This document shows positions 1,506 to 61,627 of a stretch of DNA of 64,000 nt, piece after piece (positions within the stretch are counted from its first letter, which is position 1; each line of letters starts with the position of its first letter). This DNA comes from Octopus sinensis (lineage: Eukaryota), in the NCBI RefSeq assembly GCF_006345805.1, contig NC_043004.1, positions 64,852,001 to 64,916,000 on the forward strand. Reading direction: 5' to 3'. Under the pieces are notes generated by a model. It was not told where the DNA came from. It saw only the letters and a program-made list of their open reading frames with translations, and did not search any database. Made by a program: the position numbers and the translations under genes.

Positions 1506-1545
1506 AAGAAATTTGAAAAGCTGAACGCGAAACCGGTCATTTCTT
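1506..1545 (+). ncRNA. Minimal type I hammerhead ribozyme, U3:A8 core variant
   Basis: aagaaat-TTGAAAA-GC tgaac GC-GAAA-CCGG-T-C-atttctt: 7-bp stem I, 2-bp stem II, palindromic stem III (ACCGGT) and a GUC site. It lies in the PLE 3' terminal repeat. Confidence 0.75.
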
Positions 1546-1689
1546 CAAAAACTATGTCATTGTATGAAAAAAATTTGACATTCTCCAGACATAATGACTC
1601 AAATATATATTTTTTAACCTTTTAAAACAAGCCTTCTGTAGTTTTTTCACTTTTTACTATTTTATATATATATATATATATATATACAT

Positions 1690-1830
1690 ACATACATATA
1701 GACGGGCTTCTTTCAGTTTCTGTCAGCCCAAGGCTATAGTAGAAGACACTTGCCCAATGTGCCACACAGGGGACTGAACCCGGAACCATGTGGTTCATAA
1801 GCAAGCTACTTACCACACAGCCACTCCTAT
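1690..1830 (-). mobile_element. tRNA-derived SINE (octopus OK/OR-like), 5' part
   Basis: Matches the family repeated across the window (ggctgtgtggtaag...ggttccgggttcagtccc...ttgggcaagtgtcttctactatagcc). Confidence 0.8.
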
Positions 1831-1959
1831 GTCTATGTTGTGGAGTTGTGGAGCTTTGCAAGTTGTACTTGGAAAGATGAGTAGAAAATTAACACTTTCC
1901 AACAAAAATTGTTTGGGTGGTGAGACTACATTTAAATTAAAAAGCTCAATTAATCACCA

Positions 1960-2480
1960 CCTGAGGATCTGCATATTATGGAGCAACATCATGTTAATTT
2001 ACTAGGAGTTACAGTAAGGTGTAGTTTATCATGAAAAAAATTAATTAGACAATTCTTTCTTGACATTAATGTAACAGGTCCCGTTTACTTGAACTTGCTG
2101 TAACAATCTGGTATGCCAGACATTTAAGAAGACTTTGAAGATGTTGAGTTTATGTCCAAGCAAGATAGAGGCACCCAAACACTATAACAGTAATGAATTT
2201 TTTCCAAACAAGTTGATTGGGCAAATATGTTCCATAGAATGCCCTTCATGTTCACCAGGGCCTCACACCACATCTTTATTTTTATGGGAACATTTAAAAG
2301 GTAAAGTCTACAGTACAGAACTAGCAACAGATGGTAAATTGAGGGAAGCTGTGGAACAAGAATGTACACAAATACCAAATGAAATATTTCTTGATGTTTG
2401 GGATTTTATTGCTTCATGTTATTAACAGTGCTTGGATCAGGACAGGCATCAGTTTGAAAAGAGCCATTCACAGAAAAATT
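1960..2480 (+). pseudogene. Degenerate Tc1/mariner-superfamily transposase remnant
   Basis: ORF 2135..2425 contains SPGPHTTSLFLWEHLKGKVY, which resembles the SPDLTPLDFFLWGYLKxKVY motif. Confidence 0.6.
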
Positions 2481-2699
2481 ATATTCTGTCTGTAGATTCT
2501 ATTAAATTTTCAAAATGGAATGTATATATATATATATATATATATATATATAATATATATATATATATATATATATATATATACATATATATACATATAT
2601 ACAGACAAACAGACAGACAGACATAAACATACATACAAAGGACAAAGATATCTGGCACCTTGCTGTACACAAGCAGACCTGTCCTCCACAGCAGAAGTG

Positions 2700-3700
2700 T
2701 TGAGGCCAACCCTCTGATGAAGAAGATTGGCCTGCAAAAGTCATGTGCCAGTGAAATGTAAAAAGCACTCGTGCCTGTGTCACATGTAAGTGCTTGTGCA
2801 GCGCCACATTAAAAGCAGCCAGCACACACTATAAAGTGATTGGTATTAGGAGGGGCATCCAGCCATAGAAACCATGCCAAATCAGACTGGAACCTGGTGC
2901 AGCTCTCCAACTTGCCAGCTCTGATCAAACCATCCAATCCATGTTAGCATGGAAAATGGACATTAAAGAATTGTGATGATGATGATATACATAAATATAC
3001 ATATATATATGCAAATATACAAATATATATTTTTATATGACCTGAAAATTGAAGCGAGTTCATAGCTTGCAGGATGGCCTACTGTGCTTACCTTGGATTG
3101 TAGGGCGATTGAGTCAAGTACATCAACACCAAAATAAAAATCAAATGGAAATTATAGTTGTGAAACCCATGCCAGTGGTACATAAAAATCACCATCCGAA
3201 AGTGGCCAATGCCAGCAGTGCTTTGACTGGCGTCCATGCTGGTGGCACGTAAAAAGCACCAACTGATCGTGGACATTGCCAGCCTCCTCTGGCCCCTGTG
3301 CCAGTGGCACATAAAAAGCACCCACTACACTCACAGAGTGGTTGGCGTTAGGAAGGGCATCCAGCTGTAGAAACACCACCAGATCAGACTGGAGCCTGGT
3401 GCAGCCTCCTGGCTTCCCAGACCCTGGTCAAACCGTCCAACCCTGCTAGCATGGAAAACGGATGTTAAACGATGATGATGATATATACACACACAGATAC
3501 ACATACATTATATATAATTCACCATCGTCATCATCATTTAGTAATGATATTCCATGCTGACATGAGTTAGACCAGATCTAACAGGTCAGAAGATAGTTTT
3601 GAGCTCCAATGTCTGTTTTAGCAGGATTTCTACAGCTGAATACCCTTCCAAATGCCAACCACCTAACAGAATGTAAAGGCTGCTTTTTCATATCACAGGC
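2700..3700. mobile_element. Cluster of RTE 3'-end fragments (about 2700-2990 +, 3100-3483 +, 3525-3700 -)
   Basis: They share the 3' tail of the RTE copies (gagtggttggcgttaggaagggcatccagc...aacgatgatgatg). Confidence 0.8.
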
Positions 3701-4189
3701 ACTAGTAGCATTGTTGATTAGCTTGCAAAACAAGTCCACTTGAGGTAGGTATAACATTGAGGCAGTTGGGCTAATACCAGTGTTGAGATGCAAGAGGGAT
3801 AGGGGCAGAGGTCTTGCAATCTTCAAAGCCACAGACTAACAACTAAAACAAATAAAATACACTTCAAATTTCATTTAAACAATTTCAATATTCCAGAATG
3901 CTGGCAGAATCATTAGCACTTGCCTATGTGCTTAAAAGTTGTATTGTTTTCTGGTAGTAATTCAGTGAATTCCAGATTAACCTCTACTGTAAATTCATTT
4001 TGGTTCATTTCTAATAATTTCATTTTCTCCACATAAATTTCCACGTTTCATCAAAGAGAGAGCTGACAGAATTGTTAGCACACTGGGTGAAATGCTTTGT
4101 GGTATTTTGTCCCTCTTTATGTTCAGGGTTCAAATCCCACCTAGGTTGACTTAGCCTTTCTGGGGCAAGGCTATTAAAAATATCCTTAT

Positions 4190-58717: not shown

Positions 58718-58869
58718 TCAGGCCATAACCCGTGGCCCCTACCTGGGACGTAGTCAGTCCACCTGTGCATACCTTCCTTCTTGTGACACTTGTGAAGACC
58801 TGTTGAGGCAAGTGAAAATCAAACAAAATCAAAATAGATGAACATCAATGGAATTTGTATCTTTGTGGT

Positions 58870-59340
58870 ACCAGTGCCGGTGGCACACAAGAAAACCATC
58901 CGAACATGGCCGTAGCCAGTACCGCACTGACTGGCCTCCATGCTGTGGGCACGTAACAATCACCATCCAATCGTGGCCGATCGCCAGCCTAATCTGGCTC
59001 CTGTGTCGGTGGCACATAAAAAACACCATCCGAGTGTGGTCGTCTGCTAGCCTTGTCTGGCACCTGTGTCGGTGGTACATAAAAACACCATCCGAGCATG
59101 GCCGTTCGCCAGCCTCATCTGGCACCTGTGACGGTGGCACATAAAAACACCATCCGAGCATGGTCGTCTGCTAGCCTTGTCTGGCACCTGTGTCGGTGGC
59201 ACATAAAAACACCATCCGAGCGTGGCCGTTCGCCAGCTTCGTCTGGCACCTGTGTCGGTGGCACATAAAAACACCATCCAAGCGTGGCCGTTCGCCAGCC
59301 TCGTCTGGCACCTGTGTCGGTGGCACATAAAATCACCCAC
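58870..59340 (+). repeat. ~62-bp tandem array (about 8 units) in the RTE 3' UTR
   Basis: Unit: ggtggcacataaaaacaccatccgagcgtggccgttcgccagcctcgtctggcacctgtgtc. Confidence 0.9.
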
Positions 59341-59497
59341 TACACTCTCGGAGTGGTTGGCGTTAGGAAGGGCATCCAGCTGTAGAAACACTGCCAGATC
59401 TGACTGGCCTGGTGCAGCCTTCGGGCTCCCCAGACCCCAGTTGAACCGTCCAACCCATGCTAGCATGGAAAGCGGAAGTTAAATGATGATGATGATA

Positions 59498-60280
59498 CAT
59501 ACATATATACATATGCATACATATATATATATACATATAATATATATATATATATATATATATAGATATATATATATATACATATAATATATATATATTA
59601 TATATATATATTATATATATATATTATATATATATATATACATTATATATATATACATATAATATATATATATATATATATATACATATAATATATATAT
59701 ATATATATATACAATATATATATATTATATATATATACATATATATATATATATATGTTAATAAAATAGAACATATGCATATATATAAACATATATGTAC
59801 GTACCTACCTCTACATGTACATATACACGCATATATGTGTACAGGACACCAAAAAGACGTCGAACACATAGAGAGACGAAAAACATAGACACAAACCAAG
59901 GAACAAGACAAGCAAAAAAGAGATACAGGACAATAAGCACAACGAAAAATCCCCTTCTTCAGTCGCTAAGGTTTCATCTACTAAACGTTTCGAAGGATAT
60001 ATATATATACATATATATATATATATATATATATATATATACATATATATATAATATATATATACATATATACATATATATATATATATATAACATATAT
60101 ATATATATATATACATATATATACATATATATATACATATATATACATATATATAATATATACATATATATACATATATATATATATATACATATTATAT
60201 ATATATATACATATATATATATATATATATATATATATATATATATATATATACATACATATGCATATATACACATATAT
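59498..60280. repeat. (TA)n-rich microsatellites flanking a ~240-bp repeat related to 20160-20345
   Basis: Read directly; 59800-59996 is a minus-strand homolog of the repeat near 20.2 kb. Confidence 0.85.
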
Positions 60281-60284
60281 AGAG

Positions 60285-61362
60285 AAAGAATAGCTTGGGC
60301 AAAGTTCAGAGAGCTCTTACCTCTGCTAGGGACAAAAGGCTTCTCACTCAGAGTAGCCATGCTACATGGCAGTGAAACATGGGCCATGACTGCTGAGGAT
60401 ATGTGTAAGCTCGCAAGAAATGAAGCCAGTATGCTCCGATGAATGTGTAATGTCAGTGTTCATATTCGACAGAGTGTAAGTACCTTGAGAGAGAAGTTGG
60501 ACCTAAGAAGCATCAGTTGCGGTGTGCAAGAGAGACGTTTGCGCTGGTATGGCCATGTGGTGAGAATGGATGAAGATAGTTGTGTGAAAAAGTGCCACAC
60601 CCTAGCTGTTGAGGGAACCTGTGGAAGAGGCAGACCCAGGAAAACCTGGGATGAGGTGGTGAAGCACAACCTTCGAACTTTAGGTCTCACCGAGAAAATG
60701 ACAAGAGACCGAGACCTTTGGAAGTATGCTGCGTGTGAGAAGACCTGGCAGGACAACAGAGACCATCACCCATGGCCTCAGTCCACTTATGCATACCTTT
60801 CCTTCTTGGGACACAAAACCCTACTTGTGAAGACCTGTTGAGGCAAGTGAAAATCAAATCAAAATATCAAAAATCAAAAATCAAAATCGTTCAACATGAA
60901 TGGAAATTGTAGCTGTGATACCAGTGCCAGTGGCACATAACAGAACCATCCGAACGTGGCCGTTGCCAGTGCCGCCCTGCCTGGCTTCCATGCCGGTGGC
61001 AAGTAAAAAGCACCATCCAACCGTGGCCGTTGCCAGCCTTGCCTGGCCTCCGTGCCGGTAGCACATGAAAACCACCATCCGATCATGGCCGTTTGCCAGC
61101 CTCACCTGGCCTCCGTGCTGGTGGCACGTAAAAAGCACCATCCGACCATGGCCGTTTGCCAGCCTCGTCTGGCACCTGTGCCGGTGGCATGTAAAAAGCA
61201 CCCACTACACTCATGGAGTGGTTGGCGTTAGGAAGGGCATCCAGCCATAGAAACATTGCCAGATCAGACTGGGCCTGGTGCAGCCTTCTGGCTTCCCAGA
61301 CCCCAGTTGAACCGTCCAACCCATGCCAGCATGGAAAGCGGACGATAAACAATGATGATGAT
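60285..61362 (+). mobile_element. RTE-clade LINE 3' fragment (copy 3), same subfamily as copy 1
   Basis: [14 protein letters not shown]...GRGRPRKTW; the 3' UTR is nearly identical to 8550-9078. Confidence 0.93.
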
Positions 61363-61589
61363 ACATGTATATACATATATATCCATATGTACATATATAT
61401 ACATTTATATATGCATATGTACACATATATACATATATAAGCATATATACACATATACATACATATACATGTGCATATATATACATACATGTGCATATGT
61501 ATACATATATATATATATATATATATATATATATATGAAAAAACAAGTCAAAAATAGAAAATGCTAAGATGATTTTATAGTGAATCTTT

Positions 61590-61627
61590 CAGTACCGGTT
61601 TCGGTCATTTTGAGACCTTTTCAACTG
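61590..61627 (-). ncRNA. Minimal type I hammerhead ribozyme, U3:A8 variant
   Basis: Reverse complement: cag-TTGAAAA-GGTC tcaaaat GACC-GAAA-CCGG-T-A-ctg; all three stems are intact. Confidence 0.72.

Follow-up and report, generated by a model that had tools for sequence, protein, structure and literature searches.

What does a hammerhead ribozyme have to conserve at position 3:8 of its catalytic core, the two bases themselves or the pair that they form? The question is raised by a 64,000-nt stretch of the Octopus sinensis genome (contig NC_043004.1 of assembly GCF_006345805.1, positions 64,852,001 to 64,916,000; G000:C8:64852001-64916000 in our numbering, hereafter the window), in which an initial annotation noted five hammerhead-like motifs that read UUGANAA rather than CUGANGA in the core and assigned them to the ends of Penelope-like elements (PLEs). 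Searches of the window and of the whole 2.72-Gb genome indicate that in this genome's putative hammerhead motifs each of the four standard base pairs is naturally present at 3:8, and that positions 3 and 8 change jointly inside two families.

Hammerhead motifs of the window

All five motifs carry the core U3-U4-G5-A6-N7-A8-A9 exactly where it had been annotated, with a U:A pair at 3:8 in each (Table 1). They fall into four families: A (motifs 1 and 4), B (motif 2), C (motif 3) and D (motif 5). The hammerhead topology proposed for all five stood for motifs 1, 4 and 5, which pass a strict type-I descriptor (stems I and II, GAAA, an ACCGGU palindrome and UH) and have the full set of type-I features (U4, G5, A6, A9, G12, A13, A14, A15.1-U16.1, H17 and three stems). 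Across 100 dinucleotide shuffles of the window the same descriptor found 0.07 palindromic matches per shuffle, and 0.01 with U:A, versus three in the real sequence, so the motifs are not matched at similar frequency in shuffled sequence. The scan of the real window also returned one non-palindromic A.G match.

Motifs 2 and 3, by contrast, are copies with point damage; their families retain U16.1 and a palindromic stem III. Because C replaces U16.1, the window copy of motif 2 has neither the UH nor the palindrome and is likely inactive, whereas one identical intact sequence with ACAUGU/UC makes up 19 of the 34 copies extracted from the 30 best matches to family B. Motif 3 reads AACGCU, which is non-palindromic, its stem I has 2 bp and a C.A mismatch closes its stem II; in family C, sampled in the same way, the commonest form restores the palindrome AGCGCU (7 of 18 extracted copies), and the 2-bp stem I is typical of the whole family.

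The expectation that searches built on CUGANGA or on Rfam models would miss these copies was borne out. No hammerhead in the window reaches the Rfam gathering score, and the sole match, motif 5 against HH9, scores 22.9 bits (gathering 52, E 0.33).

Four base pairs at position 3:8

We counted core variants genome-wide in a CCGG class, in which stem III was fixed as ACCGGU and the reversed pattern served as control. The patterns required G5, A6, A9, G12-A14 and H17, and the counts were made without stem checks and include some overlap. With positions 3 and 8 left free, the genome has 14,448 matches and the reversed pattern 1,534. U3:A8 accounts for 10,266 (70 in the control), A3:U8 for 1,556 (292), C3:G8 for 148 (33) and G3:C8 for 132 (44), so that Watson-Crick combinations make up 12,102 of the 14,448 matches (83.8%). 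The suggestion that the ends of this genome's PLEs commonly carry U3:A8 thus holds in the CCGG class, where U:A outnumbers C:G about 70 to 1. The search that had been recommended, with Y3:R8 allowed, would nevertheless fall short, as it would miss the A3:U8 and G3:C8 families, whose counts here cover the CCGG palindrome.

Most A:U and G:C matches come with stems I and II of their own, and the compensating stems differ from family to family. A PLE endonuclease match lies within 1.2 kb upstream of 20/52 A:U, 15/28 G:C, 18/123 U:A and 0/34 C:G sampled motifs. Where it is present, the A:U and G:C motifs lie 188-432 nt 3' of it; overall, motifs sit 86-430 nt behind reverse transcriptase (RT)-endonuclease genes. 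Many U:A motifs that have no PLE endonuclease nearby are retrozyme-like or truncated, and the C:G matches listed in the CCGG class belong mostly to one 354-360-bp tandem family.

Canonical C3:G8 families occur with other palindromes, so the dominance of U:A is shown for the CCGG class only. Outside this class the counts (C:G, 9,983 versus 2,299 in the control; U:A, 13,977 versus 10,511) are too mixed to support a genome-wide ranking of the two pairs. By hand count, one stemless repeat accounts for 33 of 100 rows listed in the non-CCGG C:G search.

Two kinds of sequence imitate the core. At L203 and 12 more loci (13/30) there is an abundant repeat that has CUGAAGA and GAAAGGCCUC but lacks flanking stems. 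Antisense coding sequence of long interspersed nuclear element (LINE) reverse transcriptases mimics the core pattern at L279 and L276 and, in the CCGG search with 3 and 8 free, accounts for six among the first 100 rows; an apparent C3.U8 family proved to be such sequence and was rejected.

Positions 3 and 8 change together

Within families, we searched with the flanks as key and positions 3 and 8 free, and counted the first 100 rows of each search by hand. PLE family G (134 rows) has A:U 87, G:C 7, A.C 2, G.U 2, A.G 1 and U.C 1; a retrozyme-like family (270 rows) has U:A 58, C:G 35, C.A 5, U.G 1 and A.A 1; and family E (430 rows) has A:U 96, C.U 2, G.U 1 and A.A 1. Positions 3 and 8 thus switch jointly in family G and in the retrozyme-like family, in agreement with the covariation first predicted (Fisher p = 9e-8 and 3e-20, computed on copies that are non-independent).

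The retrozyme-like family includes a C3.A8 subfamily (G000:C2:17172078, L338, and four further rows) with a common stem II loop and a 360-bp tandem pair. U3:A8 is found with this loop as well, and the subfamily is a possible stepping stone between pairs.

A fairer test used 117 loci outside this genome, fetched by protein similarity alone and clustered into lineages without the core. All 66 palindromic motifs at these loci lie on the sense strand, and they represent 29 lineages; the palindrome rule dropped 14 matches, eight of them antisense, non-palindromic U.U matches and six other non-palindromic ones. A Watson-Crick pair occupies 3:8 in 28 of the 29 lineages (16 C:G, 10 U:A, 2 A:U) and U.G in the remaining one. 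Shuffling leaves a mean of 13.3 paired lineages, with none of 100,000 shuffles reaching 28, and complementarity between positions 3 and 7 is seen in just 3/29.

Two other public records, which fall on separate tree branches, have A3:U8 motifs behind PLE open reading frames (ORFs) (L370:1969; L388:3195, L394 and L417). In one outside PLE family (L378, L379, L381) the direct repeats on either side of the ORF both have a U3.G8 wobble. The closest homologues are 57-60% identical, and no relative was found among the viral contigs searched.

To place the core variants on a phylogeny we used a midpoint-rooted FastTree protein tree of 60 rows, built from unnamed copies only. Two doubtful rows were kept, L183 (whose U.U label is a chance match) and L385.p2514 (whose ORF is common with another motif). 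The A:U and G:C elements of this genome form one clade (support 0.94) nested among the U:A families A (0.999) and D (0.997), suggesting that this genome's PLEs moved from U:A to A:U and G:C. A:U appears at three separate places in the tree, in its own clade, at L370 and at L388, and a second tree is similar.

Host elements of the window motifs

The motifs had been placed in several unrelated Penelope-type termini, a description that needs revision: a single element, present in two copies that are 95-97% identical, carries motifs 1 and 4, families A, C and D are related PLE lineages, and family B is retrozyme-like. In the families of motifs 1/4, 3 and 5, as in the A:U and G:C families, the motif lies on the sense strand in the terminal repeat 3' of an RT plus GIY-YIG ORF; in the family of motif 2 it does not.

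Family A motifs sit 86-100 nt 3' of a broken RT-linker-endonuclease frame (about 100 nt for motif 1). The ORF piece upstream of motif 1 matches RVT_1 (E 3.8e-7), and the GIY-YIG Pfam model gives no match there. In family D, L193:2418-4604 holds an open 729-codon RT plus GIY-YIG frame between back-to-back U3:A8 motifs; its protein matches RVT_1 and, weakly, GIY-YIG (21.5 bits, cut-off 22.6). The L193 and window translations carry a DKG motif, a CxxxxCxxC linker (of the CX2-5CxxC type) and, at the C terminus, a GIY-YIG domain with CCHH, marks that describe Neptune-type PLEs in the pertinent sections of PMC8557442, where Nematis has the same linker. By these protein marks we class the families of motifs 1/4, 3 and 5 as putative Neptune-type PLEs; the trees, as stated, hold unnamed copies only.

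Family D is the commonest, with 41 of the 97 distinct U3:A8 motifs among the matches listed. Its amplification is possibly recent, since its copies are about 95% identical (n=9). No carrier recorded as RNA was among those listed. Assembled contigs of four runs include the family D motif; contigs cannot show RNA ends and are hence mute on expression and cleavage. From the predicted cut site to the next (TA)n tract there are 57-155 nt in four of the five window motifs and 231 nt in the fifth.

The motif 2 family has a tandem spacing of 360-362 bp, and 0/30 loci have a sense PLE ORF, with one antisense PLE fragment among them. Its sequence has the marks of a non-LTR (long terminal repeat) retrozyme, namely a non-coding tandem unit of ~170-400 bp and a type-I hammerhead of canonical size. 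In the window element a short inverted piece (22296-22361) turns at the hammerhead GAAAC/palindrome, with a few bases of microhomology, a single case.

Table 1. Hammerhead motifs and their host elements in the window
Feature	Position	Strand	Details
Motif 1, family A, type-I minimal hammerhead motif	1506..1545	+	U3:A8; stem I 7 bp; core UUGAAAA at 1513-1519; stem II 2 bp; GAAA; ACCGGU palindrome; predicted cut after C1538
Motif 2, family B hammerhead motif	22089..22129	-	U3:A8; UUGAUAA; C at 16.1 (22095); G-U in stem II
Motif 3, family C hammerhead motif	38606..38646	-	U3:A8; A at 38615 (G in family) breaks palindrome
Motif 4, second family A hammerhead motif	50773..50812	-	U3:A8; predicted cut after C50780
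Motif 5, family D hammerhead motif	61590..61627	-	U3:A8; stem II 4 bp; ACCGGU; predicted cut after A61593
3' part of putative Neptune-type PLE ORF	1..1413	+	RT, linker CxxxxCxxC, GIY-YIG-type endonuclease; in-frame stop 874-876
Broken family A PLE ORF	50891..53324	-	95-97% identical to window 1-1671 over common part
Family C PLE 3' stub, 5'-truncated	38494..38785	-	97% identical to ends of ORF-bearing L196
Family D PLE 3' stub, 5'-truncated	61478..61758	-	89% identical to an end of L193
Retrozyme-like non-coding element with motif 2	21860..22361	-	~1.2 units of 360-362-bp repeat plus short inverted piece

Predicted dimers and copy arrangement

The initial annotation took it as established that minimal PLE hammerheads act as dimers through a palindromic stem III, and the predicted folds agree with this for part of the set. 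Motifs 1 and 4, L070 (A:U) and L261 (U:A, retrozyme-like) are predicted to adopt the double-hammerhead fold as their minimum-energy homodimer; for motifs 2, 3 and 5 the predicted fold is incomplete. The predicted homodimers of L111 and L108, both G:C, form stems I and III, with stem II mis-paired. At the family level, stem III is palindromic in the forms ACCGGU, ACAUGU and AGCGCU. Direct arrangements occur as 545-577-bp direct stubs in the A:U families and, at outside loci such as L341 and L372, as direct motif pairs that flank the ORF.

Relation to known hammerheads

The U3:A8 core is already published, including in PLEs, and is not new. According to the relevant section of PMC3088659, covariation from C3-G8 to U3-A8 occurs in nature, with U3-A8 alone named there as a 3:8 variant; the main text of PMC4209133 describes U3-A8 in ~1,300 PLE hammerheads of Schistosoma mansoni. 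The 56 motifs in the supplement of the latter comprise 53 C:G, 2 U:A and 1 U.G; A3:U8 and G3:C8 are absent from these rows, and the descriptors described in that paper did not request them. What seems new, provisionally, is the natural occurrence of A3:U8 and G3:C8 PLE families together with switching inside families. A study by Lunse, Weinberg and Breaker (2017) reportedly, to judge by its title, treats small PLE hammerhead variants that cleave as dimers, and may already list A3:U8 or G3:C8. Our literature search found no natural A3:U8 or G3:C8 in PLEs, just engineered G3:C8, a provisional result with figures and some key papers outside the search. Nothing on core variants was found in the accessible parts of the literature on octopus and Terminon hammerheads.

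The motifs described here resemble the minimal PLE hammerheads of PMC4209133, as characterized in its main text, in being type I, with a palindromic stem III, in a 3' repeat behind RT plus GIY-YIG, and in occurring mostly as solo truncated copies with opposite-strand neighbours and a U3-A8 core. They differ in that stem II is often 2-4 bp with no base bulged after A9, and the stem III palindrome has 6 nt. Non-LTR retrozymes, in the portions of PMC7229834 and bioRxiv 10.64898/2026.07.22.740005 that describe them, are non-coding tandem units of 350-390 bp beside PLEs. The type-I hammerheads given there for animal retrozymes, with a stem I of 5-6 bp and a stem II of 4 bp, fit motif 2 and the CCGG 354-360-bp family. 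In contrast to those retrozymes, U3:A8 is the core of most units sampled here, and C:G, C.A and U:A subfamilies coexist in one family. For G3:C8, the relevant passages of PMC11167929 (Anolis Poseidon) and PMC9901934 describe an engineered swap that partly works, whereas here G3:C8 and A3:U8 are natural and lie behind PLE genes.

Proposed mechanism and alternatives

We assign a probability of about 0.7 to the reading that these are minimal type-I hammerheads in Neptune-type PLE termini and in a retrozyme-like repeat, likely cleaving slowly as dimers, in which pairing and not identity is selected at 3:8. It draws on the anatomy of the motifs, their place 3' of RT-endonuclease genes, the enrichment over controls, the covariation of positions 3 and 8 and those predicted dimers that fold as double hammerheads. 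The element RNA would be cut slowly after the UH (N17) on pairing of two copies by way of the palindromic stem III, and selection on a few master elements would keep a Watson-Crick pair at 3:8 whatever its identity. N8 acts through its 2'-OH in hammerhead catalysis; freedom of pair identity would fit this role and an element that needs just weak cleavage. Under selection for pairing alone, lineages could therefore have moved from C:G to U:A, and then to A:U and G:C. Since neighbours on the same strand are rare, probably either a second RNA molecule serves as the dimer partner or the PLE protein helps to provide it. The majority of copies in the genome, window motifs 2 and 3 among them, are probably inert. 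Published work is in keeping with weak activity: in the parts that bear on it, PMC4209133 describes PLE hammerheads that cleave weakly or slowly as dimers or trimers, the review PMC6765202 says likewise, and PMC11167929 reports that the Anolis PLE hammerhead needs its protein and that C3G/G8C partly rescues it.

Several points weigh against selection for pairing of this kind. The switches within families reflect one or a few events each, the C3.A8 subfamily (five rows, including the tandem pair) and the U3.G8 family have amplified, the G:C families, with a median pairwise identity of 0.76-0.81, are old, and a single assembly supplies 17 of the 29 outside lineages. Predicted homodimers of motifs 2, 3 and 5, and likewise of L122, L152, L272 (A:U) and L035 (C:G, retrozyme-like), are incomplete double hammerheads. 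Of the 97 U3:A8 motifs listed, members of one family that lie within 6 kb of each other form 21 back-to-back inverted pairs and 2 direct ones (family labels were assigned by eye, and both direct pairs lie at one locus), so that cis dimers seem rare. Experiments elsewhere are also discouraging: in the results concerned, PMC11167929 finds the Anolis hammerhead dispensable for in vitro insertion, with no RNA-seq ends at the cut site, and in the pairwise scan of a type-III hammerhead in PMC9901934 the G3:C8 swap alone rescued, with other double mutants, which would include U:A and A:U, low.

These experiments would suit a fold that is kept, 3:8 pair included, as a PLE-protein-binding or RNA-dimerising structure with negligible cutting, at least in its A:U and U:A forms, as would the tolerance of all four pairs, the protein dependence of the Anolis element and the very short stems of families A, C and E. 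Yet the 56 published PLE motifs keep G5, A6, A9, G12-A14 and H17 (positions that our own patterns fixed), PLE hammerheads cleave in vitro by the accounts in PMC4209133 and PMC11167929, and the 3:8 pair is part of the active hammerhead fold in the structural passages of PMC3884650; we regard a purely structural role as unlikely. Somewhat less probable again is that A:U and G:C cores are dead relics, drifted in a few masters and copied regardless of ribozyme function. Copy numbers do stem from few masters, the amplified mismatched subfamilies and the age of the G:C families are what drift might leave, and Naiad PLEs thrive without canonical hammerheads in the account of PMC8557442. Each switch takes two matched changes, however, yet 28/29 outside lineages are paired, A:U stands at three separate places in the protein tree, and stems I-III are intact in the A:U and G:C families. 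Chance matching in AT-rich repeats has next to no probability and is refuted for the CCGG families: loose patterns do collect antisense LINE sequence and the stemless repeat, and the non-CCGG U:A count rises only modestly above its control, but the shuffles (3 versus 0.07) and the reversed pattern (10,266 versus 70), the constant place and strand behind PLE genes and the compensating stems that differ family by family all argue otherwise.

Selection for pairing could be extended to a bolder claim, in which PLEs took 3:8 through four Watson-Crick states in one genome, C.A and U.G steps amplified along the way, all four pairs cleave, and A3:U8 and G3:C8 went unreported since censuses fixed C:G or U:A. 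We hold this version tentatively and would sooner doubt than accept it.

Each of the four pairs at this position of the catalytic core is thus represented by natural, amplified hammerhead motifs, and the elements that carry them are close relatives with a known tree. With such a set one could test directly how much cleavage a Penelope element requires, and how the active site of an RNA gets across a two-step fitness valley. A census of ribozymes in which C3:G8 or Y3:R8 is fixed will undercount. PLE clades reported to have no hammerheads deserve a re-check, because the search described in the relevant part of PMC8557442 used a CUGANGA core.

Other features of the window

A distant PLE-like fragment (4317-5330, +) is 26% identical to L193, and the window hammerhead scans found none there. 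Long open gag-like and pol-like frames (33078-37273, +) we take, by their motifs, to be a Ty3/gypsy-type LTR retrotransposon. The frames at 15026-17632 (-), 6855-8550 (+), 55566-58717 (+) and 21037-21426 (+) are presumably endonuclease/RT frames of LINE type, together with a mariner-like fragment. Two C2H2 zinc-finger arrays, both long and with an 84-bp period, lie at 29563-31347 and 46812-48818 (-), and a frequent short interspersed repeat family recurs at 1703-1779, 25146-25317, 25953-26124, 42492-42663 and 43551-43844.

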